A stretch of 64,000 nucleotides of DNA from Clostridia bacterium. Lineage in GTDB: Bacteria; Bacillota; Clostridia; Oscillospirales; CAG-272. A program made the position numbers and the translations under genes. Within the stretch, counting starts at the first letter, position 1; each line of letters starts with the position of its first letter. A model generated the notes under the pieces. That model ran no database searches. It was not told where the DNA came from and saw only the letters and a list, made by a program, of their open reading frames with translations. Positions 19,902 through 38,080 of the stretch are shown here, one piece after another. Location of the stretch: positions 10,059 to 74,058 of the forward strand of contig JAFTOC010000068.1 in assembly GCA_017451585.1 (NCBI GenBank), written 5' to 3'.

Positions 19902-19979
19902 ATTCATCCTCCCATTTTCAATCGAACCGCACATAAGCAACTTCTGTGCATTGGTGCGGCAAATCTAATTCATAACACT

Positions 19980-20837: not shown

Positions 20838-20843
20838 AGTAAA

Positions 20844-21236: not shown

Positions 21237-21241
21237 TGTAT

Positions 21242-21877: not shown

Positions 21878-21894
21878 AATTTTCCTCCAACTAA

Positions 21895-22332: not shown

Positions 22333-22345
22333 CCTCTATTCCTCC

Positions 22346-22792: not shown

Positions 22793-22793
22793 A

Positions 22794-23195: not shown

Positions 23196-23271
23196 GTAAG
23201 TAACCTCCGATTTATGTATATTGGGGAATGTTACTTATCTTAGCGCAATCTCATACTTAACCTCTCGTTCA

Positions 23272-23748
23272 TTAAGCCCTGGTGATGAAGTGCCGGGGCG
23301 GTGCATCCAATTCGTATATCGTTTCCTTGATGAAATCCGGGTAGATCGTTAAGTCCACCAGTTGTTCAATCGGCATCCAACCAAGAACCACATTGCAGTT
23401 ATCCTTATGGGACACAAGCTCTCCAACATCGGGAATGTCGGAGCCATCAGCCAGCTCAATCAGATAGTAGAACGCAATATTATGTGCTTGCGTTCCGTTC
23501 CACTCCCAGAAGCATTCCTCTGTCCAGAGCAACTTGCCAACCTTAATGTCAGCACCTGTTTCTTCCTTGTATTCCCGGACAAGGCCATTAACGGTAGTTT
23601 CACCGATCTTTACATGACCACCAGGGAGAGCATATTCGCTGCCATCCCGATCCCGCTGAACCAGTAGCTTGCCATCACGAACAAGCACACCAACAGTACG
23701 AAGATCGCAGATGTACTCGTCTGTTTTGAAAATCCAATCCTTATCCAT
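23272..23748 (-). CDS. NUDIX hydrolase (paralog of 25110-25598)
   Basis: Nudix box GGHVKIGETTVNGLVREYKEETGA. Shares N-terminal IFKTDEY and overall layout with the third NUDIX gene. Confidence 0.9.
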   Translation of the reverse strand: MDKDWIFKTDEYICDLRTVGVLVRDGKLLVQRDRDGSEYALPGGHVKIGETTVNGLVREYKEETGADIKVGKLLWTEECFWEWNGTQAHNIAFYYLIELADGSDIPDVGELVSHKDNCNVVLGWMPIEQLVDLTIYPDFIKETIYELDAPPRHFITRA

Positions 23749-23776
23749 TCCTGCTCAATTCCTTTGTGGTAAAAAG

Positions 23777-24283
23777 TTAAAACAAAACTTCTTCCATGCT
23801 TTTTCTTAAAAAGTGTTCTTTGTGAGGGTCAATGCTCTTATCTGCATAACCCACTATCAATAAAGCCACCGGCTCATATTGGTCTGGGATTTCAAATTCA
23901 GCTTTCATCGTGTCCGGATTCCAGTACATAACCCATATCGATCCAAGGCCCAGGCTTGCTGCTTCCATCATCATGTGAGTCGTGACAATGGTCGCATCTA
24001 TTTCTCCGCTGGTTTTTCCGTCGTACTTTCTTGTCCAGCATTTCGTCTTGTCATAGCAAACAAGAAATGCGGCAGGCACATAATATCTGCTGGGAACAAC
24101 CCGATTCAGCTTTTCTATGTCTGAATCCGAATTGATTAGCTTGATTTTTTGCGGTTGGTAATTGCAGGCCGTAGGTGCGGATATACCTGCTTCGACGATC
24201 TTATTGAGTAGTTCATCCGGAATTGGCTTGTTCTGATAATGTAGGACAGAGTATCGGCTTTTCGATAATTCCAAGAAATCCAT
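23777..24283 (-). CDS. nitroreductase-family protein
   Basis: RYSVLHYQNKPIPDELLNKIVEAGISAPTACNYQP is the canonical nitroreductase N-terminus. Start at MDFLEL sits behind AGGAGG. Confidence 0.85.
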   Translation of the reverse strand: MDFLELSKSRYSVLHYQNKPIPDELLNKIVEAGISAPTACNYQPQKIKLINSDSDIEKLNRVVPSRYYVPAAFLVCYDKTKCWTRKYDGKTSGEIDATIVTTHMMMEAASLGLGSIWVMYWNPDTMKAEFEIPDQYEPVALLIVGYADKSIDPHKEHFLRKSMEEVLF

Positions 24284-24314
24284 ACTTGTACCTCCTGCGT
24301 TAAATATGTTGCCC

Positions 24315-25094
24315 TCATTCAAAACAGCCCAGCAGCTTCAGCAGGCCATCGTCAAATGTCAGATAATCGCTGCCCCTGACCGTTTCCAGATACAAGGCCA
24401 GCAGCTTTTCTTTTGCAGTGTGCATATCCTCATGGGTTCGGCGACCGGGATAGGTTTCCTCCAACCTGTCAAGGAAGGTCTGGGATAAGCTGTTGTATGC
24501 CTTGAACTGGTGCAGCTTCTTTCCCTCCGTCACGGTTTCCACCGACAACAGAAGCTGCCGTGCGTTGCCGAGGGCAATATCCGCAAAGATGAATTGCTCC
24601 CGGAGCAGGGCAATCTCTACATACCGCAGCTCATTGATGAAACGGTAGTGGATGGAATCATCCAGGCCATACCGCTGGGAACGCTCTGCGAACCGCTGTG
24701 CGCCTGCGTTCACGGCTTCCGTGAAGTTCTCTGTCTTAGCAAAGACAATCTTATGCTGCGGTGAGCGGATCGGCAGCTCCGGTGTTGGCATGAAGGATAT
24801 GTCTGCGCTCAGACCGTCCTCGAAATAGACAGACAGCCCCAGGACGGTGCTTGTCCAGGCTCGTTTCTCAATGTGGCAGGCTCCCAGCTCAACAAAGAAC
24901 TGCTGGAGCTGCTGATTGGCGTCTTTCACACAATCCGCATCGTAACAGCCTGCCATCAGATCAATGTCGGAGTAGATGTCAGCAAAGCCAACCGCACCGG
25001 AGCCAATCTGGATCAGTCCTTCAAATGCAGAGCTATCCCGCATGAAGCTGATTATTCTGTTTAGTAACCGTTCTCGGTCTGTTGCTTTGTACAT
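24315..25094 (-). CDS. Pol-beta-superfamily nucleotidyltransferase-domain protein
   Basis: GSGAVGFADIYSDIDL matches the G[SG]-x9-13-DxD NTase motif. The ATG at 25094 behind GAGGTG is preferred over the GTG at 25103. Confidence 0.65.
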   Translation of the reverse strand: MYKATDRERLLNRIISFMRDSSAFEGLIQIGSGAVGFADIYSDIDLMAGCYDADCVKDANQQLQQFFVELGACHIEKRAWTSTVLGLSVYFEDGLSADISFMPTPELPIRSPQHKIVFAKTENFTEAVNAGAQRFAERSQRYGLDDSIHYRFINELRYVEIALLREQFIFADIALGNARQLLLSVETVTEGKKLHQFKAYNSLSQTFLDRLEETYPGRRTHEDMHTAKEKLLALYLETVRGSDYLTFDDGLLKLLGCFE

Positions 25095-25109
25095 CTCTGT
25101 CACCTCATA

Positions 25110-25598
25110 CTACTTATGTACGAAATATGCAATACCCTCTGGCAGAGTAATGATGTGTTGCTTTGCTTCAAAGGGGTACAACTTGATATTGGGCAGCTCT
25201 GCAAGAGGAATCCAACACATATCAAGATTGAACCGGATGTTGCCCATCTCGTCCAGAGCTTTGAATGTCCCTTCCAAGGGGATCTGGGTTTCATCGCAGA
25301 GGGAAACCAAATAGAACATATTGATTTGCTGACAATCCAAACCACTATTTCCCCAGGGGCAGAAATTTTCGCCCACCATCAACAGCCGCTCAATCTTTAT
25401 ATCTGCACTTAATTCTTCTTTGAACTCTCTGACCAGTGTAACATCGGTGGTTTCTCCAAAGGTTACATGACCTCCGGGGAAAGCAAAGCCGTCATCGTTG
25501 GGTACTTTCTGAAGCAGAATTTTCCCATTATGAATCAGCACACCGCCGACACGGTAGGAGAACACAAAATCATCTGTCTTAAAAATGATGTCTTTCAT
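25110..25598 (-). CDS. NUDIX hydrolase (paralog of 23272-23748)
   Basis: Nudix box GGHVTFGETTDVTLVREFKEELSA. Confidence 0.9.
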   Translation of the reverse strand: MKDIIFKTDDFVFSYRVGGVLIHNGKILLQKVPNDDGFAFPGGHVTFGETTDVTLVREFKEELSADIKIERLLMVGENFCPWGNSGLDCQQINMFYLVSLCDETQIPLEGTFKALDEMGNIRFNLDMCWIPLAELPNIKLYPFEAKQHIITLPEGIAYFVHK

Positions 25599-25604
25599 AT
25601 TCTT

Positions 25605-26906
25605 TCACTCCGAAATAAACCGATGTAGCACTCGGTCAAAGTAATAGTATCGCTTGCCCAGCAGCCAGTTGTCGATAGTTCCCTTTGGAGGGATACCGCC
25701 GCAAACATCCAAGATCTCAGCCACCCATCGGCAATCTGCCGTCAGCATGAAATACTCCTTGCACCGCTCGGCCTGTGTGTATGCATCTTGCAGCATCTGT
25801 TTATCACCGTACTGCTCCCATTTGGAGAGGTAAGCCTCAATGATTTCTGCTTTCTGTTGCTCTGAAAGCTGCCGCCGCACCACATGAAGGAAGTGCAGAG
25901 CATCATAAAAAGGATGACCATAGAAAGCCATACCCCAATCATAGAGAACTTCCGCATCCTCCATGATACGCACATTGCCAGGACGAATATCTGCATGGCA
26001 AAGGGCGTTAGGAATGGGGTATTGGCAGAGATGTTCCAGAGCAGATTTCACTTTTGCCAGCTTCGCACTCAGCAGGCTCCGATCTGCTTTAGAAAGCGGA
26101 CGATTCGTTGCTTCAAAAATGTGGTTGACCTGGCGTTCAAAGTCGGCAATCTCAGCGAGTAGCTTTTGTGGGGAACAGTCGATCAGACCATAGGTATTCT
26201 CGCCGGTAGCCTGGGTCTGCTTTTCACCCCAGCTTTCCAGCCAGGATTTATACTGGCCTGCATCACCGCTCTGAAAGCCATGTCCGGGCATTTCCTTTGT
26301 GATGGCAGCGTACCCATCCGGGGAAACTGCCAAAAACACAGGAGTGCCGCCCATGCTGGTCGTAAGCTGCTTTTCTTTGGCAGCGGTGTTCACATATACA
26401 GAGGATGTAATCTTCAGATACATGGCTCCGGCATCCGTAGAAATGCGGAAGATGGTCGATACATAAGCGTTCTTGATCTGCTGAATGGTTTCTTGAACAG
26501 AGTAGTCCATTCCGGTCAGCACAGTCTTTGCCCAATCCAGATATTGCGCCATTCCATGCTTAGCCATCCAGGGCGCAGTTTTACTTTGATTATCATTTCT
26601 GGCAAGAAGCAATGCAGCAGACATATCCGAATCACCTGGGAGCTTGTCTGTCCATGCGAAACCATTATTCAGCTGGGTGCTGCCAACAGGTTCAAACACA
26701 GCAACGCAGTAATCCCCGACAAAATAGATGTACTTTCGATAGACCCGGATGCCGCAATGGTCGAATATCCATTGGTTATCTGGCTCTGGGGATTCAAAGC
26801 CATACCCGGTATTTACTTTTGTTTCGGAGGTCAGCATACGAACCTCCTGCCCACTGAATTCAACGACGAAGCGATCTTCATCCATAACTGCATATAAGAG
26901 CTTCAT
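25605..26906 (-). CDS. APH-type phosphotransferase with a ~170-aa N-terminal extension
   Basis: Catalytic region LCHADIRPGNVRI...LYDWGMAF (HxDxxxxN...D). Start at MKLLYAV sits behind GGAGGG. Confidence 0.75.
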   Translation of the reverse strand: MKLLYAVMDEDRFVVEFSGQEVRMLTSETKVNTGYGFESPEPDNQWIFDHCGIRVYRKYIYFVGDYCVAVFEPVGSTQLNNGFAWTDKLPGDSDMSAALLLARNDNQSKTAPWMAKHGMAQYLDWAKTVLTGMDYSVQETIQQIKNAYVSTIFRISTDAGAMYLKITSSVYVNTAAKEKQLTTSMGGTPVFLAVSPDGYAAITKEMPGHGFQSGDAGQYKSWLESWGEKQTQATGENTYGLIDCSPQKLLAEIADFERQVNHIFEATNRPLSKADRSLLSAKLAKVKSALEHLCQYPIPNALCHADIRPGNVRIMEDAEVLYDWGMAFYGHPFYDALHFLHVVRRQLSEQQKAEIIEAYLSKWEQYGDKQMLQDAYTQAERCKEYFMLTADCRWVAEILDVCGGIPPKGTIDNWLLGKRYYYFDRVLHRFISE

Positions 26907-26957
26907 ACCGACCCTCCAATCCAAAAGGTACCATTATGGTAACCACATCCCAAATGA

Positions 26958-27008
26958 AACAGCAGTGGAAGACTGGCGAAGAGCCAGATCGCCACTGCTG
27001 TTGTTTTT
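26958..27008. terminator. hairpin separating the R-M genes from the enzyme array
   Basis: aacagcagtgg / ccactgctgtt stem with an inner hairpin ctggcgaagagccag. The T-run is on the plus side only. Confidence 0.45.
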
Positions 27009-27636
27009 ATAAAATCGCTTCGCTTAAGTAATCCCGCACACGCTGTTCCAGTTCTTCAGCAGTAAAAGCACAGGGCTGAAGCCGCTCCGCCCAGGCACGA
27101 CCAGGATGCAGACAATCCCAGAAAGGCATCTTACCGCTGTGGCGACCTTTGCCGGGATCGTGGTTGCCAAAACCGTCAAGTACTCGATTCCAGACGGGCT
27201 TGAACCGCTCGATCAACAATGACTCCGTCAGCGGAATCCAAATATCATCAACGGACAAAAACTGGCAATAGAAGTCTTCTAAGCGAAGGTTCGTAGCAGC
27301 ATCTACAGACTTTGCGTGGTCATTGAGCCGTTTGAAAAGTGCAGTTCCAGGGTCAACATCGTCGCCCTGCCCGCCTTTTCTCGCACCATCAGGCACTGCC
27401 TTGCCGACATAGATGGGGCAAGCAAACTGGTCGTTGCGATTAACTTCCGCAAGCGCCTCATACGCAGGAAAATCCCCGACATAATAAAGTGCGTACACTC
27501 CGGCACCGATGAACGGTTCCGGAGGCAGCGGGTAGATGTCAGATTCCAACAGTGCATTTGCAACACTGGCACCCAAGTGCCTTTTATCGAGAGGGTTAAA
27601 AGGTTCAAATACTGGGTAATCAGACTTTTTAGCCAT
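27007..27636 (-). CDS. Eco29kI-like GIY-YIG restriction endonuclease
   Basis: 209 aa. GVYALYYVG...PIYVGKA matches the GIY-YIG core as found in Eco29kI-family enzymes. Overlaps the methyltransferase stop by 8 nt. Confidence 0.7.
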   Translation of the reverse strand: MAKKSDYPVFEPFNPLDKRHLGASVANALLESDIYPLPPEPFIGAGVYALYYVGDFPAYEALAEVNRNDQFACPIYVGKAVPDGARKGGQGDDVDPGTALFKRLNDHAKSVDAATNLRLEDFYCQFLSVDDIWIPLTESLLIERFKPVWNRVLDGFGNHDPGKGRHSGKMPFWDCLHPGRAWAERLQPCAFTAEELEQRVRDYLSEAIL

Positions 27637-28807
27637 TGTCCACCAGTCCTTTCATCTGTGTAATTACGGAATCGCCTACGGCCTTTGCCAGTTTTACAGG
27701 CACAGCGTTTCCGATTTGTCTCATGCTTTCCGTCCAAGATGCACTGAACAAATAGTCATCCGGGAAGGTTTGAATTCTTGCGCTTTCACGGACGGTGTAA
27801 TAACGGACACTACCATCATCGAGTACAACCATGTTTTCGCCACCAGGAACGCCGTGGGCTCCCGCCTTGATGGTTTTTGACGGCTCGTCCAGTTTGCTAC
27901 CGGAATGTCCGGCATATACCCTTGCACCATCACGGAATTCGTGGTTGTTGAACAGCATTGCTTTACTCAGATCGGTGGGATCTGGCAAATCTCCAATAGC
28001 ATCACGAACGGTCTGCCATCTAAGGAGAGGTGTATCCGTATCCTCAACAGCACGACGAATGGAGCGTAACTGCTGTGCCGACAGCGGCATTTCAGCGGGG
28101 CGCTTTATGCTGTGTTCTTCCCAATACTCACCGGTCACCCATTTGGAATAGAGCAATGCTTCCTGGGAATGTGTCGCAGCCGGAAAACTCCAACTCGCAT
28201 TGAAATCACTTCTGAAGCCTACGATAATAACACGATGGCGGGACTGCGGCACGCCGTAATCGGCAGCGTTTAACAGTCGGAACACCACATTGTAAGAAAG
28301 GCCATCATCATGTCCAGCGGTATGGTGTTGTTCCAACAGCGCCAGGTGATCTTCCCAGGTCATGATGTCTTTTTTTACAACTTCGGGATGCTGAAGTTGC
28401 AGGAGGATGTAATTAAAATAGGAGCTAAAGGACTTTCGGAGTAGTCCTTTAACATTCTCGAAAATAAACGCTTGAGGCTGTGTTTCTCGGACGGCTCTCA
28501 CTGCCTCTGGGAACATATCTCGTTTATCATTATATGCTTGGTGCTTACCACCCAGGGAGAACGGCTGACATGGGGGGCCTCCGGCCACAAGCTGAATTTT
28601 GCCGGTGTAACCGTCGTAACTAACAGTGCGAACATCGGTCTGGAACACAGACCAATCTCTTACACCTGGATATCCGTTAGCGATGTTGTGTTTGATATTT
28701 TCACAGGAGTCTTTATCCCACTCAAAAAGTGCCTTGTGAGCGAAACCTGCCTGTTGCAGACCGAGCGCAAGACCGCCCGTTCCGCTGAACAATTCTATCG
28801 ATTTCAT
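27629..28807 (-). CDS. DNA (cytosine-5)-methyltransferase
   Basis: Motifs I (ELFSGTGGL), IV (GGPPCQPFS), VI (ENV), VIII (QSRHRVIIVG) and X (GNAVP) are all present. Confidence 0.95.
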   Translation of the reverse strand: MKSIELFSGTGGLALGLQQAGFAHKALFEWDKDSCENIKHNIANGYPGVRDWSVFQTDVRTVSYDGYTGKIQLVAGGPPCQPFSLGGKHQAYNDKRDMFPEAVRAVRETQPQAFIFENVKGLLRKSFSSYFNYILLQLQHPEVVKKDIMTWEDHLALLEQHHTAGHDDGLSYNVVFRLLNAADYGVPQSRHRVIIVGFRSDFNASWSFPAATHSQEALLYSKWVTGEYWEEHSIKRPAEMPLSAQQLRSIRRAVEDTDTPLLRWQTVRDAIGDLPDPTDLSKAMLFNNHEFRDGARVYAGHSGSKLDEPSKTIKAGAHGVPGGENMVVLDDGSVRYYTVRESARIQTFPDDYLFSASWTESMRQIGNAVPVKLAKAVGDSVITQMKGLVDNG

Positions 28808-28832: not shown

Positions 28833-29048
28833 TCAGTTAGGCTTTTCGCCGGGCATCAATTCCATGATGTCAGTTATGTCACAATTCAATGCCGTGCATA
28901 TTTTAATCAAGACATCCGTTGTGATATTATCGCCCTTACCGAGTTTGGCAATAGAAGCTGAACTCACACCGGCAGCAGCTTTTAACGCCTGCCTGTTCAT
29001 ATTTCGGTCTATCAGCAACTTCCATAGTTTGTTGTAACTGATATACAT
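28833..29048 (-). CDS. XRE/Cro-type helix-turn-helix protein (possible controller protein)
   Basis: 71 aa. NRQALKAAAGVSSASIAKLGKGDNITTDVLIKICTALNCDITDIME is a classic HTH_XRE. Lies between the ATPase operon and the R-M genes on the same strand. Confidence 0.85.
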   Translation of the reverse strand: MYISYNKLWKLLIDRNMNRQALKAAAGVSSASIAKLGKGDNITTDVLIKICTALNCDITDIMELMPGEKPN

Positions 29049-29075: not shown

Positions 29076-30890
29076 TTAATATACGCCATCCAGGAACCCA
29101 TATCTTCCTTCAAAACGTCCCTTAGTAAAGGTAATAACAGTTGCACCTGCGCTTTCATAGTCCAGATTGGGGATATGCTCAAGGTTCTCAATTACGATCA
29201 TTTGTCCTTCGGCTTGGTTATTCATGAAATACTTAAACAGAGCAGTTCTCATGCTTTCCGGCGCTGCATCATCCACACCTTGATCAAGGCCGAGGAGCGG
29301 CGTGTCAATGATAAGCAATCCAGGATTATACTTCGCGTCGCTACACAGATACTTTCTAAACATCAGGGTAACCACGGTGTTAAGGAACGCTCTGTAACCT
29401 TTGCCATGATTCGTTGACTTTTTGCCACCGTTAACTTCGATGTCGAAATCCGCCAAATTAAACCGTGCCGAGCTAAGGTTTTCGTAGTGGCACTCTTCCA
29501 GGATTTCATGAGCGTACCTATCCATTGCTCTCAGAAATTCTTCATCAAAATATTCCTTCGGGTGATACTTCAATTCAGAAGAATTCTCCGGCGGAAGCTG
29601 ACGCAGATCGGACATCCAGCTTTCTTGGAAGGAATCGATAACACTAACCTCATGCTTCAAACGAATATATACCTGGTATTTTTCGAGTGCGGCTTGCAAT
29701 TCATCCGCCTTGGGACGGAGCTTCTCATTGATAAGAGTCTCAATATCCTCGCGCTTCGCCTGTAGCGCTTTCAATTCAGCCTCAATTTCAGCCAATTCAG
29801 CCTGGACATCGGCTTCAGTTTCACTCAGGCCCTTCATCTGTCCCATGATTCTGGTCAGTTCTGCACGAGCGGATTCAATATAGGAAAGTCGGTTCTGCAC
29901 GGGCATTTTTCCGTCACAGAAGGGACACTTGGCACTATGCGGTACTCCTTGGTACTCAGCTTCACCCTCGACAATGAAGGTCAGTCTATGAACATCCGCA
30001 GTATACTGGCTCCTAAGTGCTTTATATCTGGAGCGTAGCATTGTGCATTCAGCAGCTTTTTCTTCTGTGGCCAGAATTTGGACAAGCAGCTCCTTGCTAT
30101 TGTTTACCGCCTCGGTGATTGCTGCATCGGTCTGCTTAATATCTTCGACGATACGGGCAACTTCCGCTTCAACATCAACACCTTGCACGGCATCCAGCTG
30201 CGCTGCAATGCTTTTACGGCGATCCGCCACTCCAGAGAGCTGCTTGTTTACATATTCCTCGACAGCCTTTCGTCTGGCGACACGGATTTCCTTTTTGGTT
30301 TGCGCATCATTCTCTGCAAAATCACGTCCGGTTACAAGATATAGCAGTGCTGAGAGGAATAATGTTTTCTCAGTATGCTGTTCCGGAACTACAATAGATG
30401 CAGATCTTGCAATGTCATCTTCGGGGATCAACAACATCTGCAGTATGGTGCGCCACGTTAAATGCTTTCTTTCAAAATCACTGTTTTTAGCAATCATCGG
30501 TTCTCCGTCGATTGCAAGTAGCTTAAGCCACACAGAATTCAGAACGGGCTTCTTCTGATTCTTTTTGTAGGTCAGGTCATAGGTACCGCTTTCAATATCC
30601 TCATTGTAGCTGACCACATATACCTGATTTTTACCAATATTACGGCTGAAATCAATCTGACCCTTATCGGTGTTAATTGTCATCGTAACCTTGGAGTAAC
30701 CGGTACTCTCATCAAAGGGGATCTCGCTACTTCCGAAAATAAAGTCGATACACTTAATCACGCAGGTTTTTCCTGTATCGGAATATCCTTGGATAATATT
30801 AAGGCCTTCGCCAAATGACACTACAGCGTCTGACCGTTGATCGCCGTGGGCCACTATTCTTTCAATATAGAACTTTGCCACGCTGATCAC
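29076..30890 (-). CDS. SMC/Rad50-like ABC ATPase with coiled-coil insert and CxxC hook (LmuB / ABC-3C ATPase-like)
   Basis: Walker A GYSDTGKT at aa 35-42. About 230 aa of heptad-rich Ala/Glu/Lys/Gln sequence with CPFC in its middle. C-terminal Walker B/D-loop LLIIDTPLLGLD and IVIENLEH. Confidence 0.75.
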   Translation of the reverse strand: MISVAKFYIERIVAHGDQRSDAVVSFGEGLNIIQGYSDTGKTCVIKCIDFIFGSSEIPFDESTGYSKVTMTINTDKGQIDFSRNIGKNQVYVVSYNEDIESGTYDLTYKKNQKKPVLNSVWLKLLAIDGEPMIAKNSDFERKHLTWRTILQMLLIPEDDIARSASIVVPEQHTEKTLFLSALLYLVTGRDFAENDAQTKKEIRVARRKAVEEYVNKQLSGVADRRKSIAAQLDAVQGVDVEAEVARIVEDIKQTDAAITEAVNNSKELLVQILATEEKAAECTMLRSRYKALRSQYTADVHRLTFIVEGEAEYQGVPHSAKCPFCDGKMPVQNRLSYIESARAELTRIMGQMKGLSETEADVQAELAEIEAELKALQAKREDIETLINEKLRPKADELQAALEKYQVYIRLKHEVSVIDSFQESWMSDLRQLPPENSSELKYHPKEYFDEEFLRAMDRYAHEILEECHYENLSSARFNLADFDIEVNGGKKSTNHGKGYRAFLNTVVTLMFRKYLCSDAKYNPGLLIIDTPLLGLDQGVDDAAPESMRTALFKYFMNNQAEGQMIVIENLEHIPNLDYESAGATVITFTKGRFEGRYGFLDGVY

Positions 30891-31333
30891 CTCCTTAGTG
30901 ATTCCTTTGCTTTTTCACTGATTATCGCGAGCAAGCCAATCTCCGTGCTGTTTCCGAACTTCTGATTTGTCTTGGATGCCATCTCTCTATAAGCACTTGC
31001 ATACTCTGTGCTTTGCTTATTGCAAAAAGCTCGTCCATGCTCAGTAATCTCAAAGCAAAATCCGGCCTTCCTGTGTGTAGCTCGGACCAAACCATCAAGC
31101 ACGAGACTTTTCAATGCTTCGCTCAACACTTCTCGGCGGGATGTAAATTCACTGAAGCTATAGTCGTTCAACCCATGAAGATTGTTCTCCGTTAGGTCAA
31201 AATAGCTGCCGTATATGGCAATAAAATCGTAGGCTGCAATTCTGTCCAAGGTCATATCCTTGCGTTCTACAACTGAAAGCAACAACGCTGACCGAAGAGA
31301 CAATTCAAACGGCGTATTAAATAATCTCGTCAT
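30887..31333 (-). CDS. small helical protein, candidate middle component (LmuC / ABC-3C MC-like)
   Basis: 148 aa. 4-nt overlap with the ATPase gene and 17-nt overlap with the upstream gene. The family assignment rests on size, position and remembered sequence character only. Confidence 0.5.
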   Translation of the reverse strand: MTRLFNTPFELSLRSALLLSVVERKDMTLDRIAAYDFIAIYGSYFDLTENNLHGLNDYSFSEFTSRREVLSEALKSLVLDGLVRATHRKAGFCFEITEHGRAFCNKQSTEYASAYREMASKTNQKFGNSTEIGLLAIISEKAKESLRR

Positions 31334-32015
31334 CGATGTTCACCCACGATTTGATATCACCGTCATTCACCATCATATGGCAAATGCCTTTCTTCTCCAA
31401 ATTGCTGATAAGTCCAACCACGTTCATCAGAGCCGAACCGGACAGAGATGTATTCGTGATTTTTTCAAGAACTGCTTCCAATCTGTCGAATCCGGTAGTA
31501 TGACGGTCGCTAAAGTATGTAGCCTCAATACCTTCATAGGCGTCACTTTTCAGCGCCTTGAACTGTGCTTCACCATCGGCAAATATCTCTCGTACAGACC
31601 GCTGGGCACTTTCAGCTCCGAAATACGCTTTCCTTTGATTTGCGTAATGGCGTCTGAACTCACGCGGAATGGCATCAGGTGAAACCGCCTGCTGAATTCT
31701 CTCGGCATACACCTCACACAAAGCATTGATATAAGGAAGTTCATTGGGATCCAACTCGTCTTGAGGAACAAGCTGCACAGGCAGAATGATTTCCTCACTT
31801 CCCAAATATACAATTCTTCTTTCTCTGTCATAACGTGTCGGAAGAATAGGGGTGAACGGTTTCCCGGTATCATCGCAAGGATCGGAATTCCTATCGCCAT
31901 ACACATTTACAGTCATACTCTCAACATGGTCAGCATGAACGGATTTACTTCCATATTGATTCACTTGTTTAGCAGGAGCAACAGACACTGCTCGCTTTGC
32001 TACTTCTTCTGGCAT
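31317..32015 (-). CDS. candidate LmuA / ABC-3C C-terminal-domain protein without a recognisable effector domain
   Basis: 232 aa. The C-terminal two thirds (INALCEVYAE...KGICHMMVNDGDIKSWV) resemble the conserved C-terminal module of ABC-3C effector proteins as I recall them. The N-terminal ~90 aa carry only the VNQYG..VH.DHVE motif. Confidence 0.5.
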   Translation of the reverse strand: MPEEVAKRAVSVAPAKQVNQYGSKSVHADHVESMTVNVYGDRNSDPCDDTGKPFTPILPTRYDRERRIVYLGSEEIILPVQLVPQDELDPNELPYINALCEVYAERIQQAVSPDAIPREFRRHYANQRKAYFGAESAQRSVREIFADGEAQFKALKSDAYEGIEATYFSDRHTTGFDRLEAVLEKITNTSLSGSALMNVVGLISNLEKKGICHMMVNDGDIKSWVNIDDEII

Positions 32016-32028
32016 AGGTTTCGCCTCC

Positions 32029-32691
32029 TTACAGTTTCAAATTTTCCACATGATCTATGTGAACGGGATGGTCACCGTACTGATTTACAATCGTTTGATG
32101 CACAACAGCCCCAGCTGTATTAGCGGCACCTGATGACTCCTGGTCATCCACGACCTCCGCTTCTACAGTATCTGCTCTGCTCATATCATCAGCCATTGCC
32201 TGCATCGCTTTTCCCCAGGCATCGGCCATTGCCCTTCCCGAAGCAAGTATCTTCTCCGAGAAAACATCATATGGCGTTTTGCCAGTGCCACCCTTAGCGT
32301 CCTTCGGGGCGCTTTTTCTTTTTGTCCCGGCTGCGGTTTTCAGAATGGAAAGGAACAGATCCGCCAACTGTCTTCCTGCATTGAAGCCGTCGATATCGGG
32401 TAGCTGATCCCGGAAACTGTCGCATAGGCTTGCAACCGTCTCGTCAGAGAACTCATGAATAAAAGACACAAAGTTCTCGGTTTCAAGATAAGGGCTGATC
32501 TTTTTTGCAATTCTGGAGATGCCTGTTGAGCCATTGAAGTAAGAACGGTATGTGACCTCAGACTGTTCATCCAACGCACTCTGGCCTTCGTCCGTAACAA
32601 TGACATCAAAGAGGGTTTTCACGAAAGCCCCTTGGTTGCTCGAACCACCGATTATCGGATGCAACGTCTGCACAAAGTCCTTAAATTCCAT
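32029..32691 (-). CDS. hypothetical protein, first gene of the four-gene operon
   Basis: Start at MEFKDF, 9 nt after AAGGAG. No domain recognised. The C-terminal tail VNQYGDHPVHIDHVENLKL repeats a motif found at the N-terminus of the next gene. Confidence 0.6.
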   Translation of the reverse strand: MEFKDFVQTLHPIIGGSSNQGAFVKTLFDVIVTDEGQSALDEQSEVTYRSYFNGSTGISRIAKKISPYLETENFVSFIHEFSDETVASLCDSFRDQLPDIDGFNAGRQLADLFLSILKTAAGTKRKSAPKDAKGGTGKTPYDVFSEKILASGRAMADAWGKAMQAMADDMSRADTVEAEVVDDQESSGAANTAGAVVHQTIVNQYGDHPVHIDHVENLKL

Positions 32692-32713
32692 GTTCTTCAT
32701 CTCCTTGCTGAAA

Positions 32714-32750
32714 CCTATCAAAACCTATCAACGGCTATCTGATCCTATCA
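32714..32750 (-). promoter_or_regulatory. four helically phased 10-bp direct repeats (TGATAGG-nnn on the gene strand)
   Basis: cctatca at 32714, 32724 and 32744, and gctatct at 32734. The period is exactly 10 nt, ending 8 nt upstream of the operon SD. Confidence 0.6.
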
Positions 32751-33132
32751 GCCCAATTTCGTATAATGCTTTCAGAAGCTGACAAAAACAGCTTCTTCGA
32801 CAGGGTAAGCCTTCGAGTCTATAGCTTCATTTTACATTATAGCAGATATTTGTGAATTTTTCTACCTGAATCATAAATTTTCTATCTGTGTTCTCAAACA
32901 AAAAGTCGTATTCGTAAACTTGCCCTTTCGAACCGCCTGATAACGCATCACCTGATCACTGATGGCTCAACGGTATCCGGCGGACAAGTGAATACTGTAG
33001 CTGCCTTTTGAGCGGGTTTGCTGCAATCCGAAACGGAGAACTCCGTTAGGACTGCGGTCGGTTTCCTATACCCATTTTACGGCAGCACCCAGAGTCCTCC
33101 GTTTCGAGAAATCGAAAATCGGAGGACTTTTT

Positions 33133-33651
33133 ATGACAATCAATGACAACCAATACTACATCTTCATCCAGAACGGGAATCGGAAGATCCCTGTCACCAA
33201 GGAAGAGTTCGACTCCTTTTATAAGGAAACAAGCGTATTCCGCCGTCGGCAGATGCGCCAGGGACTCTGCTCCTGCCCCAAGCGTAAGTGGCTCTACTGC
33301 GATACCGACTGCGAGAACTGCCGTTACCGCTTTGACAACTACAGCACCTATTCGATGGATGAAGCTGTTCCCGGTGCGGATGACGATGACGAGGAGATGA
33401 CCAAGCACGATGTCATTTCCGATGGCGCCCCCTGGTTTGCGGATGTTGTGGCTGATGTGGATCAAATGCAGATCCTGCTCAACCGCATCCGTGAAATCAT
33501 GCCGGAAGCCATTCAGATGGGTGAGCTTCGCCTCAAGGGCCAGACCGATGCCGTCATCGCAGAAGCGTTAGGCATCCCGCGTACCACGCTGCTGTCCCGC
33601 CTGAAAAAGCTGAGGAAAGTGCTTGACGAAGAGGTGTCGGACATCCTCTGA
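33133..33651 (+). CDS. sigma-70 region-4-like HTH protein with Cys cluster (phage/ICE type)
   Basis: C-terminal GQTDAVIAEALGIPRTTLLSRLKKLRKVL is a region-4 HTH. The central part reads CSCP..CDTDCENC. Confidence 0.6.
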   Translation: MTINDNQYYIFIQNGNRKIPVTKEEFDSFYKETSVFRRRQMRQGLCSCPKRKWLYCDTDCENCRYRFDNYSTYSMDEAVPGADDDDEEMTKHDVISDGAPWFADVVADVDQMQILLNRIREIMPEAIQMGELRLKGQTDAVIAEALGIPRTTLLSRLKKLRKVLDEEVSDIL

Positions 33652-33759
33652 AAAAATTCTGAAGTTTTTTCAAAAACCTTCGTCAAACGGCGGATGTGCT
33701 GACCAAGTGCCAACTGTAAGGGGCATCCCGATACCGCCCCTTGCAGGAGGTGAAAAAGA

Positions 33760-33972
33760 ATGCACGAGTCCGACAACATCGTGGTGATGACCCCGGAGGA
33801 AGAACTGGTTGACCTGCTCCTGGACTTCATCATCGTATCCGCAAGCCTGGCAAAGAAAGTCAACCGCACCATCAAGCAGAAGCAAATCAAGGAAGGAGGC
33901 ACCGTCAATGGGCAAATTCAGCGAACTGGATCTGGCAATCAAGGATCTGCGCAGCGCCGCAGCCACTATTAA
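33760..33972 (+). CDS. small hypothetical protein (uncertain)
   Basis: Strong AGGAGGTG RBS 7 nt upstream of the ATG. Overlaps the next ORF by 65 nt, so the true 3' end and the reality of the gene are unclear. Confidence 0.35.
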   Translation: MHESDNIVVMTPEEELVDLLLDFIIVSASLAKKVNRTIKQKQIKEGGTVNGQIQRTGSGNQGSAQRRSHY

Positions 33973-34228
33973 TGAAGTGGCAAACACCCTGGCAGAGATG
34001 TTCAGCACCGCGTCGGCTGATGAAGCCCCTGTCGCTGCCACTCCTGCTGAACCCGTACTGACCCTGGAACAGGTCAGAGCCGTACTTGCGGACAAGTCCC
34101 GTATGGGCTTTACCGCTGAAATCCGCTCTCTGCTTCAGAAGTACGGCGCAGCCAAGCTGTCCGGCATCGACCCCGCCAACTACAAGGCACTTGTTGCTGA
34201 TGCGGAGGTGTTGGGCGATGGCAACTAA
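33908..34228 (+). CDS. hypothetical phage-module protein
   Basis: Start at MGKFSEL behind AAGGAAGGAGG. 106 aa. Overlaps the DUF2800 start. Confidence 0.55.
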   Translation: MGKFSELDLAIKDLRSAAATINEVANTLAEMFSTASADEAPVAATPAEPVLTLEQVRAVLADKSRMGFTAEIRSLLQKYGAAKLSGIDPANYKALVADAEVLGDGN

Positions 34229-35345
34229 ACACGCGGTGCTGTCCGCATCCTCATCCGAACGGTGGCTGAACTGCCCACCTTCCGCAAGGCTCTGCGAAGC
34301 CTACGAGGACAAAGGCAGTGATTATGCCGCCGAGGGAACCGATGCCCACACCCTCTGCGAGTACCGGCTGAAACAGGCTCTGCGCATTCCTGCGGAAGAC
34401 CCCATCGAGAGCCTGTCCTGGTACAACGAGGAAATGGAAGAATGCGCCGCCGGGTATGCCGCCTATGTGGTGGAACTTCTGGAGACCGCAAAGCAGCTCT
34501 GCTCCGACCCCGTGGTCATGATTGAGCAGCGGGTTGATTTCTCCCGTTGGGTTCAGGATGGCTTCGGAACTGCCGACTGCATCCTCATTGCCGATGGTGT
34601 CCTCAACATCGTGGACTACAAGCACGGCAAGGGCGTGGAAGTCAGTGCCGAGGGCAACACGCAGCTCACCCTTTACTCCCTGGGTGCTTTGGAAATCTTC
34701 GATGGCATCTACGACATCGACAGGGTCTGCGTCCACATCTTCCAGCCCCGAAAATCCAATGTGGTCTGCTCCATGATGGAAAAAACCGACCTCTATGAAT
34801 GGGCAGATACGGAACTGACCCAGAAAGCGCAACTGGCTTATGCAGGTCAGGGTGACTTCAGCTGCGGTGAATGGTGCCGGTTCTGCAAGGCAAAGGCCGA
34901 ATGTAGAGAACGTGCCGAAGCCAACCTGGCGCTTGCCCGATATGAGTTCCAGTCTCCCGCGCTACTCGATGATGAGGAGATTGCCGACATCCTCGGCAAG
35001 GTCGATGCTCTGACCGCCTGGGCATCCGATGTGAAGGAATACGCTCTTCAGCAGGCAGTCAGCGGTAAGGAATGGACGGGCTGGAAACTGGTCGAGGGTC
35101 GTTCCAACCGCAAGTACACCAACGAGAACGCCGTAGCCGCCACCGTAGAGGGCGCAGGCTTCGACCCGTATGAGCAAAAAGTCCTCGGTGTCACCGCCAT
35201 GCAGAAACTGCTGGGCAAGACCCGCTTTGAGGAACTTCTCGCACCTTACATTGAAAAACCGCAAGGTAAACCGACGCTCGTGCCAGAGAGCGACAAACGT
35301 CCGGCAATGAATACAGCCAAAAACGATTTCATGGAGGAATTTTAA
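34218..35345 (+). CDS. DUF2800-family PD-(D/E)XK nuclease-like protein
   Basis: N-terminus MATKHAVLSASSSERWLNCPPSARL, C-terminal CGEWCRFCKAKAEC, about 375 aa. Confidence 0.75.
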   Translation: MATKHAVLSASSSERWLNCPPSARLCEAYEDKGSDYAAEGTDAHTLCEYRLKQALRIPAEDPIESLSWYNEEMEECAAGYAAYVVELLETAKQLCSDPVVMIEQRVDFSRWVQDGFGTADCILIADGVLNIVDYKHGKGVEVSAEGNTQLTLYSLGALEIFDGIYDIDRVCVHIFQPRKSNVVCSMMEKTDLYEWADTELTQKAQLAYAGQGDFSCGEWCRFCKAKAECRERAEANLALARYEFQSPALLDDEEIADILGKVDALTAWASDVKEYALQQAVSGKEWTGWKLVEGRSNRKYTNENAVAATVEGAGFDPYEQKVLGVTAMQKLLGKTRFEELLAPYIEKPQGKPTLVPESDKRPAMNTAKNDFMEEF

Positions 35346-35346
35346 T

Positions 35347-35901
35347 ATGTCTAACACTGCAAATAGAGTCACCAATCCCATGAAGGTTATCACCGGTCCC
35401 GACACCCGTTGGTCTTATGCCAACGTCTGGGAACCCAAGTCCATCAACGGCGGCGCAGCCAAGTACAGCGTCAGCCTCATCATCCCCAAGTCCGACACCA
35501 AGACGGTTGCTAAGATCAAGGCGGCTATTGAGGCTGCCTACCAGGAGGGTCAGGCCAAGCTGAAGGGCAACGGTCGTTCCGTGCCTCCTCTCGCTGCCAT
35601 TAAGAACCCCCTGCGCGACGGTGATGTCGAGAGACCCGATGACCCCGCCTATGCCAACGCTTACTTTGTCAATGCCAATTCTGCCACCGCTCCCGGTATC
35701 GTTGACGTTGATCGCAACCCCGTGCTGACCCGCTCCGAGGTCTACTCCGGCGTGTATGGCCGTGCCAGCATCAACTTCTACGCCTTCAACTCCAACGGTA
35801 ACAAGGGCATCGCCTGCGGTCTGAACAACCTTCAGCTGATCCGTGCCGGTGAACCCCTGGGTGGTATGGTCGTGCCGGAGAAACCGACATGGCTGGAATA
35901 A
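35347..35901 (+). CDS. DUF2815-family protein (phage ssDNA-binding-like)
   Basis: RWSYANVWEPKS...YSVSLIIPK pattern. This family is the usual neighbour of DUF2800. Confidence 0.7.
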   Translation: MSNTANRVTNPMKVITGPDTRWSYANVWEPKSINGGAAKYSVSLIIPKSDTKTVAKIKAAIEAAYQEGQAKLKGNGRSVPPLAAIKNPLRDGDVERPDDPAYANAYFVNANSATAPGIVDVDRNPVLTRSEVYSGVYGRASINFYAFNSNGNKGIACGLNNLQLIRAGEPLGGMVVPEKPTWLE

Positions 35902-35909
35902 GGAATTTG

Positions 35910-35934
35910 GGCATCCGCAAGGGTGCCTATTTTC
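35910..35934 (+). terminator. hairpin terminator at the deletion-like junction
   Basis: ggcatcc-gcaa-gggtgcc followed by tatttt. Confidence 0.5.
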
Positions 35935-35967
35935 ATATAAAAATATGAATTTTAGGAGGACACGCAA

Positions 35968-36387
35968 ATGAAACAGATCTGGTCCGGCATTCAGATTGCC
36001 TTCACTGCCTTTGGTGGTTTCCTTGGATGGTTCCTGGGCGGTGTGGACGGCTTTCTGTATGCGCTGATTGCCTTTACGGTAATCGACTACATCACCGGCG
36101 TCATGTGCGCCATCACCGATAAGAAGCTCTCCAGTTCCGTTGGCTTCAAGGGTATCTGCAGGAAGGTTCTTATTTTTACCCTCGTGGGCATCGGCAACAT
36201 CGTGGATGTCTATGTCCTCGGCCAGGGCGGTGTACTGCGTACCGCAGTCATCTTCTTCTACCTGTCCAATGAGGGTGTCAGCATCATGGAGAACTCCGCA
36301 CACCTGGGACTGCCTATCCCTGCAAAGCTGAAGGAAGTCCTGGAACAGCTTCACGAGAGAGGAGACAACGGCAATGAATCTGAATAA
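35968..36387 (+). CDS. phage holin (holin_4/toxin-secretion family)
   Basis: Three TM helices. LIAFTVIDYITGV and YLSNEGVSIMEN motifs. Confidence 0.8.
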   Translation: MKQIWSGIQIAFTAFGGFLGWFLGGVDGFLYALIAFTVIDYITGVMCAITDKKLSSSVGFKGICRKVLIFTLVGIGNIVDVYVLGQGGVLRTAVIFFYLSNEGVSIMENSAHLGLPIPAKLKEVLEQLHERGDNGNESE

Positions 36388-37318
36388 GCTGATTCTGACC
36401 GAAAACGCCTGCTATAAGGCGGGTCGCAAAATCACCGTCAAGGGTATCATGGTTCACAGCACAGGGGCGAATAACCCCTGGCTGAAACGCTATGTAGGGC
36501 CCGATGATGGTAAGCTGGACAAGAACCAGTACAACAACCACTGGAACATCTATCATCCCGGCGGTCGTGAGGTCTGCGTCCACGGCTTCATTGGGAAACT
36601 GGCGGACGGTACCGTAGCCACTTATCAGACCCTGCCTTGGGATCACCGTGGCTGGCACGCCGGCGGTTCTGCCAACAACACCCATATCGGTTTTGAAATC
36701 TGTGAGGACGGTCTCTCTGATGCCACCTACTTCGGTAAGGTGTATCAGGAGGCCGTTGAACTTTGTGCCTACCTCTGCAAGCAGTACGGTCTCACCGAGA
36801 AAAATATCATCTGCCACAGCGAGGGCTATAAGCAGGGCATCGCATCCAACCACGGTGACGTCATGCACTGGTTCCCCAAGCACGGCAAGAGCATGGACAC
36901 CTTCCGTGCAGCGGTCAAAGCGCTCCTGGATGCCGATACCGAAAAGGACGAGCCTGCCCAAGAGGAGACTCCTGCGGTCACTTGTCCTGAAAAGCTGACT
37001 TCCGGCTATTACCGTGTGCGTAAGACCTGGAAGGACAGTAAGTCCCAGGTTGGTGCGTACCGTGTGCTGAAGAACGCAAAGAAGGCTGCGGACAAGAACC
37101 CCGGCACCTATGTTTTCTCCAATGACGGTGTTGCTATCTATCCTGCGGAAACCACCGAGGAGACCTACCGCATCCACACGGTGGTCAAGGGTGACACTCT
37201 CTGGGATATTGCAAAGGCATACCTGGGCAACGGCTCCCGTTACCCGGAAATCAAGACCCTCAACAATCTCAAATCCAATGTCATCTACAGCGGTTGGAAG
37301 CTGAAGATCCCCAACTAA
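36374..37318 (+). CDS. N-acetylmuramoyl-L-alanine amidase endolysin with C-terminal LysM
   Basis: Amidase_2 features (GIMVHSTG, HAGGSANNTHIGFEIC, CHSE) and a LysM-like tail HTVVKGDTLWDIAKAYLG..IYSGWKLKIP. Confidence 0.85.
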   Translation: MNLNKLILTENACYKAGRKITVKGIMVHSTGANNPWLKRYVGPDDGKLDKNQYNNHWNIYHPGGREVCVHGFIGKLADGTVATYQTLPWDHRGWHAGGSANNTHIGFEICEDGLSDATYFGKVYQEAVELCAYLCKQYGLTEKNIICHSEGYKQGIASNHGDVMHWFPKHGKSMDTFRAAVKALLDADTEKDEPAQEETPAVTCPEKLTSGYYRVRKTWKDSKSQVGAYRVLKNAKKAADKNPGTYVFSNDGVAIYPAETTEETYRIHTVVKGDTLWDIAKAYLGNGSRYPEIKTLNNLKSNVIYSGWKLKIPN

Positions 37319-37323
37319 CAAGC

Positions 37324-37368
37324 AAGCCCATCGAGGAGATAATTTCTCTTCGGTGGGCTTATTTTTAT
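37324..37368 (+). terminator. intrinsic terminator after the lysis cassette
   Basis: aagcccatcgaggag / ctcttcggtgggctt stem followed by atttttat. Confidence 0.7.
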
Positions 37369-37449
37369 GCTCTTTTTTTCGTCAAAACGGATATCTGCTG
37401 ACCAAGTGCCAACTGAGGAGAGGTCTCCTCGGATTGGAGGATACCCGTC

Positions 37450-37851
37450 ATGACGGATTTGCAGAAAGAACAAATCAAAACCTTGCGTTTACAAGGTATC
37501 GGTTATGTAAAAATCGGAGAAATGCTCGGTATTTCAAATAATACAGTACGCTCATTCTGCCGCCGAAACGGTCTGGGTGATACAGCCAAGAACTCGATTG
37601 CCTGTAAGCACTGCGGTAAGCTGATAAAAATCATCCCCAAGCAAAAACCTCGGAAGTTCTGTTCGGATGCCTGCCGGACTGCCTGGTGGAACAGTCACCC
37701 AGACTGTGTGGATCGGAAAGCGGTTTATGCGTACACCTGCGCCCACTGCGGTAAGCCTTTCACAGCATATGGAAATAAGGAGCGTAAATATTGCAGTCAT
37801 AACTGCTACATCTCCGACCGCTTCGGAGAGGAGCGTGATGCTCGTGACTGA
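37450..37851 (+). CDS. HTH plus zinc-ribbon protein (recombinase-associated regulator)
   Basis: N-terminal HTH LRLQGIGYVKIGEMLGISNNTVRSF, followed by CKHCG..CSDAC and CAHCG..CSHNC. Confidence 0.65.
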   Translation: MTDLQKEQIKTLRLQGIGYVKIGEMLGISNNTVRSFCRRNGLGDTAKNSIACKHCGKLIKIIPKQKPRKFCSDACRTAWWNSHPDCVDRKAVYAYTCAHCGKPFTAYGNKERKYCSHNCYISDRFGEERDARD

Positions 37852-38080
37852 TGATTACCGCACCAGACTGGAACGCTATCTGGCATCTATGCTACAGGCA
37901 AAACGGATGATGTCGATGGGGATTTTAACCCCCGAAGATTACGCCATAATTGATACAATGCAGCGCGAGAAATTTGGAATATCTTCGTGTAGTTTATATC
38001 GCGGGATTGACTTGATATATAGTGGTTTCAGAGGTAATATGTCACACTACGAGGAGGTGACAAAATGCCAAGAGCAATAA
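37838..38080 (+). CDS. small helper protein upstream of the recombinases
   Basis: 80-aa ORF starting at MLVTDDY behind GGAGAGGAG. Overlaps both neighbouring genes. Confidence 0.5.
   Translation: MLVTDDYRTRLERYLASMLQAKRMMSMGILTPEDYAIIDTMQREKFGISSCSLYRGIDLIYSGFRGNMSHYEEVTKCQEQ

Follow-up and report, generated by a model that had tools for sequence, protein, structure and literature searches.

Lamassu systems are present in roughly 10–15% of prokaryotic genomes, and the logic of their activation, in which LmuA is released and oligomerises, has only recently been solved. LmuA's C-terminal domain (CTD) serves for oligomerisation and is held by a LmuB dimer together with LmuC; DNA ends or replication structures trigger the release of LmuA, and the free protein oligomerises with its N-terminal effector active, a part of the molecule that makes no contacts in the resting complex (10.1101/2025.03.14.643221; 10.1101/2025.04.02.646746). 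A published survey of Lamassu described a sizeable clade, O, as effector-less (Haudiquet et al., 10.1101/2025.04.02.646746). Here we describe a Lamassu operon of four minus-strand genes, G1 to G4, found in a stretch of 64,000 nucleotides (nt) from a Clostridia bacterium (Oscillospirales, CAG-272; assembly GCA_017451585.1, contig JAFTOC010000068.1, positions 10,059 to 74,058 of the forward strand; hereafter the window). On profile and comparative grounds, LmuA is encoded in this locus as two polypeptides, G1 with the presumed effector body and a C-terminal peptide, the tail, and G2 with a closely similar peptide, the head, followed by a CTD of the CTD6 family. The locus shows where the missing effector of effector-less Lamassu may have gone, namely into an upstream gene whose product is re-attached by a matched peptide.

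To date, the only known cases of a split with matched motifs on the two sides are immune gene pairs of amyloid signalling. One of them, the BASS11 pair of Bab/Agp in E. coli, has been experimentally shown to transmit an antiphage death signal, and a 2020 survey found that in Firmicutes Bell domains are lacking and NLR-like architectures are rare or absent. Full-text literature searches returned no report of a head/tail split or of an amyloid link for Lamassu, the paper on ABC-3C systems (Krishnan et al. 2020) lying outside the scope of these searches. The explanation that we favour for the locus as a whole, to which we grant slightly less than an even chance, is that of a split type II Lamassu that signals by activation-dependent templating between heads and tails.

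The Lamassu genes and the division of LmuA

A preliminary description of this DNA had listed four co-directional minus-strand genes with a gap of 13 nt between G1 and G2 and overlaps of 17 nt between G2 and G3 and of 4 nt between G3 and G4, and the coordinates of the open reading frames (ORFs) reproduce these spacings exactly. The length of 220 amino acids (aa) given there for G1 (32029–32691) agrees with ours as well. Read from its first TTG the G1 ORF spans 32029–32721, and the ATG at 32691 gives the 220 aa; because an AAGGAG lies 9 nt upstream of this ATG and the G1 homologues all start with MEFKDF, the ATG is taken as the real start.

The Lamassu/ABC-3C assignment proposed in that description is borne out by profile searches in Pfam, NCBIfam and PADLOC, in which LmuB, LmuC/MC2 and LmuA-CTD6 profiles are all matched. 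G4 (29076–30890, minus strand, 604 aa) is LmuB, a short Rad50/SMC-like ABC ATPase, which matches the PADLOC model PDLC03867 over its full length (residues 5–604, 8.8e-244) and also Pfam AAA_23. The three ATPase motifs recognised earlier are in place, i.e. Walker A (GYSDTGKT, aa 35–42), the zinc hook CPFC, which is the sole CxxC of the protein (aa 322–325), and Walker B (LLIIDTP, aa 525–531), and the region between the Walker motifs gives weak Rad50/SMC coiled-coil matches. Its 604 aa, a Walker B of the hhhhD[QSTE] type (hhhhDT) and one zinc hook fit the 'short' class (Haudiquet et al., 10.1101/2025.04.02.646746). A housekeeping identity of the ATPase (RecN, SbcC), which had been named as a refuting alternative, fails because the RecN, Rad50 and SMC models score far under their cut-offs (NCBIfam RecN 14.2 bits against 407.9, Rad50 18.1 against 700, SMC 15.3 against 729); the neighbours of the ATPase gene, moreover, are MC2 and CTD6 genes and not DNA-repair genes.

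G3 (30887–31333, minus strand, 148 aa) is LmuC, the ABC-3C middle component 2, with a full-length match to Pfam MC2 PF20288 (6.1e-43, 146.6 bits against a cut-off of 26.9) and a match to PADLOC LmuC PDLC03875 (2.6e-50). G2 (31317–32015, minus strand, 232 aa) comprises the head, a short linker and CTD6. Its C-terminal two thirds had been read as an LmuA-type module preceded by a part with no recognisable effector fold, and both halves of that reading are sustained: Pfam CTD6 PF20282 is matched by residues 92–224 (31344–31742; 1e-30, 107 bits against a cut-off of 26.4) and positions 145–326 of PADLOC LmuA PDLC03857 by residues 49–228 (3.2e-62), and the first ~48 aa have no domain match in the Pfam and PADLOC profile searches. 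The genes also co-occur, as the proposal of a system had implied. In a comparison set of 126 loci, 115 with a CTD6 alignment and 11 obtained by exact protein look-up, the CTD6, MC2 and LmuB genes keep the same order in practically all related loci for which the sequence extends far enough (~120 loci), LmuC keeping its position between lmuA and lmuB. By its LmuB, LmuC and CTD matches at curated thresholds, the locus is classed as a genuine short type II Lamassu/ABC-3C system.

Searches of PDB chain sequences with LmuB and with the CTD6 profile gave nothing useful, and the AlphaFold2 (AF2) model of G2, built on a 25-sequence alignment, has a predicted local distance difference test score (pLDDT) of 47.6, too poor for a fold, by contrast with the 94–98 of the N-terminal domain of G1. 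The poor G2 model fits the published idea that the free LmuA CTD may need partners to fold; the shallow alignment is an equally possible cause.

Concerning the division of LmuA, the canonical Lamassu feature is an effector located on the LmuA polypeptide itself, and in the window the N-terminal body is found on G1. The two proteins match consecutive parts of a single PADLOC LmuA model, PDLC03857, G1 with its residues 11–138 (model positions 1–136, E=1.2e-16) and G2 with the positions given above, and hence they are two halves of one LmuA family, the N-terminal (effector) half and the docking half. The first of these matches overturns the earlier statement that the first gene resembles nothing known. 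It also cuts in two the suggestion that the effector function sits on a separate, undescribed protein: the protein is separate, and it is not wholly undescribed, since PADLOC models its family as one fused LmuA. G1 consists of the N1 domain (aa 1–125, 32317–32691), which is the presumed effector body, a linker (aa 126–195, 32107–32316) in which a low-confidence helix is followed by a disordered acidic stretch, EAEVVDD..SSGAA (AF2 pLDDT 40–64), and the tail.

When joined, G1 and G2 are colinear with fused LmuA proteins of 359 aa; in the alignment to P0023 the identity is 71% across 356 columns, and there is one insertion of ~95 aa. This insertion corresponds to G1 167–220 plus G2 1–~52, that is, the acidic linker, the 25-aa tail, the stop, a GGAGG ribosome-binding site (RBS), an ATG and the 24-aa head, and the fused LmuA proteins (355–360 aa) are without the tail/head motif altogether. 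The 173 homologues of G1 show several architectures, including N1–CTD6 fusions of 355–360 aa, stand-alone proteins of 220–235 aa, and proteins that end in another tail or contain an additional middle domain, and those of G2 are mostly short CTD6 proteins of 225–241 aa with 47–98% identity. The split form is kept down to ~45% identity in dozens of species. Fused counterparts are known for N1 (P0023) and for two other bodies described below, N2 (L010, L069) and a winged helix-turn-helix (wHTH) domain (P0170), each of which is also found joined directly to CTD6. In terms of annotation, such systems should be counted as four genes and not three, the first gene being now labelled hypothetical. A further N1 architecture, of 313–314 aa (P0098, P0096–P0105), has a different C-terminal half ending in ..DDWDDGEF and carries no tail motif.

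Two other ways of obtaining LmuA from two genes were considered and rejected. A programmed frameshift or read-through is at odds with the clean TAA stop of G1, the 13-nt gap and the separate GGAGG RBS and ATG of G2, and a split intein is at odds with two peptides that are alike, only ~25 aa long and devoid of intein junction residues.

Matched tail and head motifs

The products of the adjacent, collinear genes G1 and G2 share, at their C- and N-termini respectively, a motif that passes the 15-aa minimum used for amyloid-signalling pairs. On the G1 side it forms the extreme C-terminus (tail, aa 196–220, 32032–32106, VVHQTIVNQYGDHPVHIDHVENLKL) and on the G2 side it lies at aa 17–40 (head, 31896–31967, QVNQYGSKSVHADHVESMTVNVYG). 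The two peptides align with a local score of 63 (z=9.8), which is reached by 0 of 5000 shuffles, around the core VNQYG..VH.DHVE. They belong to what we call class A, for which 16 non-redundant tails give the consensus VVHQTiVNQYGDHPVHIDHVeNLKL. Taking all classes together, the motifs are 20–27 aa long, with an N/Q/G/H fraction of 0.32–0.50, interspersed V/I and G/NG turns. In the G2 head, VNQYG is followed at a distance of 19 residues by a second, partial motif copy, VNVYG; the pattern recurs in many class A heads (..NL.VEVNVFG) and is reminiscent of HET-s-type repeated rungs.

Several head types are found among the short CTD6 proteins of the comparison set, and in each case the ORF directly upstream ends in the matching tail, the gap between the tail gene and the head gene being typically 5–15 nt. 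Head A (VNQYGD..H.DH..NL) is preceded by tail A in 42 loci, 32 of them non-redundant, and head B (IQQTGq.N.NVTN..GGNV) by tail B (IQQQTNVVQNG..N.N.TNNGT.N) in 25 loci, 21 of them non-redundant, with no A/B mismatch among the 32 and 21 non-redundant pairs. Class C is matched once, in L119 (head ..TNIQEYKENNFNIEGSEVSF.., tail ..TNIGTQTVNNFDIKDSKVTF..). The few exceptions to the matching come from contig ends, from a frameshift (L008) and from a locus that the regular expression missed and that is actually A/A (L064). Within a class, tails score 66–76 against heads, and across classes the score falls to 26, which is background level. Among the long fused CTD6 proteins there is none with a tail-bearing neighbour.

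The motifs are also under stronger constraint than the residues around them. Mean pairwise identity among homologues amounts to 0.73–0.75 for the tail, 0.51–0.60 for N1 and 0.35–0.40 for the linker, and that of the head to 0.62 against 0.35 for the preceding residues. A search with the 50-aa tail alone returned seven short fragments, and an exhaustive search with a tail profile gave 46 matches, of which all the real ones are C-terminal tails on N1, N2, wHTH or M bodies; the multi-stretch matches P0239 (ankyrin repeats) and P0249 (Ig-like repeats) were set aside as chance resemblances. Plasmids of Escherichia, Burkholderia, Klebsiella, Streptomyces and Enterococcus commonly encode CTD6 proteins annotated as 'ABC-three component system protein', and in none of these plasmid matches (H3–H17) does the alignment extend into the ~50 N-terminal residues of G2; the head thus appears restricted to the gut Firmicutes clade. 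As judged from these alignments, the motifs show conservation and modularity, and those of neighbouring genes match throughout.

Tails are exchanged independently of the bodies that carry them, as follows from the incongruence between the two: the N1 body closest to that of the window (89% identity, L116–L118) has tail B beside a head-B partner, and N1 bodies with 54–56% identity to it have tail A. The tail is moreover carried by several unrelated bodies, which comprise N1, N2 (KIPHLCGG.., ~230 aa), a Trans_reg_C winged helix and a ~170-aa middle module termed M. Upstream proteins were clustered at 80% coverage, and single linkage lumped all of them through the shared modules.

The motif pair is likewise found with a second receptor family. 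The closest relatives of G1 (P0015, P0061, P0036, P0045) adjoin a 211–216-aa protein that is followed by a ~760-aa AAA_13 ATPase, the PADLOC candidate PDC-S06. This 211–216-aa partner, of no known family and unrelated to CTD6, bears head A (TTVNQYGDKSVHIDTVKHM) next to effectors with tail A, and head B (LQQTGTNNVAVANQPGATVNF) next to those with tail B. Such loci suggest that PDC-S06, entered in PADLOC as a candidate of one gene, functions together with two partner genes. Three-gene units consisting of N1 with its tail, the 211–216-aa head protein and AAA_13 are located at 6001–9519 in L116, 5001–8644 in L122, 5001–8640 in L124 and 4114–8246 in L126.

With these comparisons at hand, it can be asked whether the split could be decay or a neutral relic, i.e. 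a broken fused lmuA with a functionless duplicated junction. Broken copies do occur. In L005 (5959–6986) the upstream gene is divided between an ORF of 253 aa and one of 77 aa, and in L008 (39–1151) the upstream-gene tail is out of frame, the CTD6, MC2 and LmuB genes looking intact in both; these two cases may be occasional decay or sequencing error. In addition, two G1 homologues of 225 aa, P0017 and P0019, have a tail that is cut short with a changed frame (..VNQYGENCVHRCSASYL) and are natural tail-truncated variants. Nevertheless, the fused LmuA is without the motif, which is therefore not a duplicated piece of an ancestral linker, G2 has a ribosome-binding site and a start codon of its own, and the split has persisted to the low identities and over the many species mentioned above. 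Motifs that exceed linkers in conservation and equal folded domains are not expected of a relic either, nor are three classes that co-vary or a pair that is reused by another ATPase system. We regard a relic as highly improbable, and the comparative data already contradict it, since co-varying classes, tail exchange, constraint and a second receptor together exclude a pseudogene or relic duplication. The same comparisons show the two LmuA halves to be joined by a coupling that is functional, modular and homotypic.

The N1 body and a possible route of activation

AF2 models residues 1–122 of N1 as a compact eight-helix bundle with pLDDT of 94–98. The model has no relative in the PDB by Foldseek (best E 0.23, TM ≤0.2) and in BFVD it matches only uncharacterised gut Siphoviridae proteins; N1 has no Pfam or NCBIfam family, and its PHROGs match is only phrog_6948, of unknown function. 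A HamA/DUF1837 identity of G1, for which PADLOC gave a weak match (E=3.6e-4), found no support, as Foldseek of the N1 model returned no Hachiman protein. As modelled, N1 is a new effector fold, and with it and the further bodies N2 and M the analysis defines new protein parts.

In the templating reading, the LmuB dimer and LmuC would keep the CTD6 of G2 sequestered and monomeric, by analogy with the solved complexes. Once LmuB senses DNA ends or replication structures of a phage or plasmid, G2 would be released and its CTD6 would oligomerise, which is the step that would cluster the heads. Clustered heads would then stack as a β-sheet nucleus able to recruit and template the matching tails of free G1 molecules, and the N1 domains, forced into an active oligomer, would bring about cell arrest or death. 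As G1 would not be bound in fixed stoichiometry, a single complex, once activated, could act on a large number of effector molecules. The signalling logic would be that of NWD2/HET-S, Bell/NLR (BASS) and Bab/Agp, here placed downstream of an SMC-like DNA sensor. Sequestration and release we infer from the homologous systems.

A bolder claim, which we advance tentatively and with rather more doubt than belief, is that the SMC-like sensor relays its alarm by prion-like amyloid templating, an irreversible and amplifying switch built on a portable plug common to the Lamassu-CTD6 and the AAA_13/PDC-S06 systems and to several effector bodies on mobile elements of gut Firmicutes. If true, amyloid signalling, a mechanism described for fungal NLRs and for one system of E. 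coli, would extend beyond NLR/TPR receptors and beyond the surveyed taxa, to SMC-type DNA sensing in common gut bacteria of humans and animals; the motif would be an interchangeable connector between sensors and effectors, and templating would account for the effector-less Lamassu clade.

The head/tail pair fits the criteria of amyloid-signalling motifs because of its terminal position, the abutting genes, the linker, the length of 20–27 aa, the richness in N/Q/G/H and the existence of matched families. Several observations weigh against templating. The motifs of the window were set beside BASS by architecture and composition criteria, the partner of the pair is not an NLR, and both cross-β assembly of the motif and toxicity of N1 are inferred by analogy. 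Many of the loci come from related gut metagenomes, so that raw counts overstate independent events; the independent evidence for pairing is made up of the three classes, the two receptor families and the body/tail incongruence. The G1 tail is disordered in the AF2 monomer (pLDDT <50), although a monomer would be expected to look this way and the finding carries no information. N1 shows no transmembrane-like segment or hydrophobic N-terminal helix (maximum KD19 0.8), unlike the Bell/HeLo pore-formers, its conserved positions are mostly hydrophobic, with no conserved catalytic constellation and no recognisable toxic fold, and wHTH DNA-binding domains sit in its slot in some loci. G1 is thus called an effector on a presumption drawn from its position in the LmuA architecture, not from an activity.

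The latter features would also suit a G1 that acts as a sensor, a specificity or regulatory subunit or a titrated inhibitor, the killing coming from elsewhere. The N1 bundle looks non-enzymatic and is without PDB relative, a Trans_reg_C DNA-binding domain takes the same position elsewhere, and the bodies in this slot are highly variable, as is often the case with sensors that face phage diversity. However, every characterised Lamassu has its effector N-terminal to the CTD, with LmuB as the sensor and an N-domain that is contact-free at rest, the operon holds no other conserved candidate effector, and the neighbouring restriction-modification (R-M) genes vary among loci. That G1 plays such a part in place of killing is in our opinion unlikely.

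The main rival of templating is a constitutive non-covalent tether, to which we assign a sizeable probability that falls clearly short of even. Here head and tail would dock as soon as they are made, for example as paired β-hairpins, and G1–G2 would act like a one-piece LmuA, the split serving a cassette-like exchange of effector bodies and not signalling or amplification. The pairing evidence fits this account equally well, the coexistence of fused and split forms of the same bodies suggests that they are functionally equivalent, and one tail on many bodies is what is expected of a plug-and-socket adaptor, matching the coupling principle of the effector-associated domains (EADs; Kaur et al. 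2020, PMC7159879). On the other side, a heterodimeric dock needs no likeness between its peptides, near-identical N/Q/G/H-rich motifs of 20–25 aa with free termini and disordered linkers are a prediction of in-register stacking, and the motif is too short for a globular homotypic domain like the EADs, none of these arguments being decisive. Sequence data cannot separate templating from a constitutive tether.

Genomic setting and comparison with known systems

The operon belongs to the cargo region of a phage-like integrative element. It is preceded by an intergenic region of ~440 nt in which a consensus scan finds 15 promoter-like sites against 9.1 ± 2.8 expected; three of them, with 10/12 matches each and one with an extended TG, form a cluster at 32829–32897 (minus strand) that is likely to be the operon promoter. 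Directly downstream of LmuB, and also on the minus strand, follow an HTH_26 or Cro-C1-type regulator of 71 aa (28833–29048, 27 nt after LmuB, Pfam HTH_26, 1.2e-17), a C5 DNA methyltransferase (27629–28807, Pfam DNA_methylase, 2.5e-60, PADLOC MTase_II) and an Eco29kI-family endonuclease (27007–27636, Pfam RE_Eco29kI, 8.6e-70, PADLOC REase_II). The preliminary description had placed the operon in an AT-rich island beside an R-M system, and this defence-island context is well founded: GC content is 0.459 in the operon and 0.463 in the 18–33 kb stretch against 0.55 in both flanks, the HTH and R-M genes directly adjoin, and the cargo slot is a recurrent one. Protection against phages or plasmids by abortive infection, dependent on the LmuB ATPase, is predicted from the R-M neighbour and the mobile-element cargo-slot context.

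Related elements share the same backbone, with a Lamassu or an AAA_13 system in one slot, then the same HTH gene and then varying R-M genes. The R-M neighbour is variable and not part of Lamassu, its place being occupied by other R-M types in other loci. The HTH_26 gene (67–71 aa, 52–92% identity) is located right after the ATPase in nearly all loci, AAA_13 loci included (for example 9537–9740 in L116, 4552–4755 in L119 and 8659–8862 in L122), and exceeds the defence genes in conservation; its role could be that of a shared regulator, an R-M controller protein or a boundary gene of the cargo slot.

Divergent from the operon, the plus strand at 33133–40939 encodes a sigma-like protein (phrog_13787), a DUF2800 PD-(D/E)XK protein, an Enc34-type ssDNA-binding protein, a holin, an amidase-LysM lysin and two tandem large serine recombinases of 433 and 526 aa, a pair found with the same lengths in L124. 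On the minus strand at 18711–26924 there is a run of low-GC, co-directional cargo genes for two APH-type phosphotransferases, three NUDIX hydrolases, a GNAT acetyltransferase, a DJ-1/PfpI protein, a nitroreductase, a weak adenylyltransferase-like protein and a 409-aa protein without family, which may be a drug- or metabolite-modifying cassette.

Compared with type II Lamassu/DdmABC, the locus has in common a LmuB of ~600 aa with a CxxC hook, an MC2-type LmuC, CTD6, tight gene coupling and a place in a defence island on a mobile element. It differs in having LmuA in two genes, the effector-body protein ending in a peptide that is repeated at the start of the CTD6 protein, and its N1 body is unlike the described Lamassu effectors (Cap4, Mrr, PDDEXK, Sir2, HNH, lipase, protease, FMO and SMEK). 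With the effector-less clade it shares a short LmuA that is essentially a CTD, an intact LmuB and LmuC, and an occurrence in many species; the difference is that in the present locus the N-terminal body comes from an upstream gene whose product bears the matching motif. The short head-CTD6 proteins are a plausible match to that clade, whose missing effector would then be encoded by the upstream gene.

PDC-S06 units occupy the same slot of the same element family, with the same N1 body and the same tail and head classes. They lie outside the window, and differ in their ATPase (PF13166, ~760 aa), in having neither MC2 nor CTD6 and in carrying the head on the unrelated 211–216-aa protein. The EADs (Kaur et al. 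2020, PMC7159879) resemble the motif pair in that a core protein and the effector encoded beside it each carry a copy, the likeness is greatest between adjacent copies, the same effectors occur elsewhere in direct fusion with the core, and the adaptor is common to unrelated core systems. They are, unlike the present peptides, small globular and mostly α-helical domains, whereas the tails and heads are terminal, β-prone peptides of 20–27 residues with no confident AF2 fold.

Finally, the amyloid pairs HET-S/NWD2 of fungi, Bell/NLR BASS1–10 of bacteria and Bab/Agp BASS11 of E. coli differ from the locus on the receptor side, which here is a Lamassu CTD6 (or AAA_13-associated) protein and not an NLR/TPR one, in their hosts, which here are gut Firmicutes, and in their effectors, that of the locus matching neither the Bell/HeLo type nor another known death domain such as TIR or CHAT; for the present motif, amyloid formation is a prediction. 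What they have in common with it is a motif of ~20–25 aa present both at the C-terminus of an effector and at the N-terminus of its receptor or activator, adjacent, collinear and near-abutting genes, a flexible linker before the motif, several matched motif families, and an immune or abortive-infection setting on a prophage-like element.

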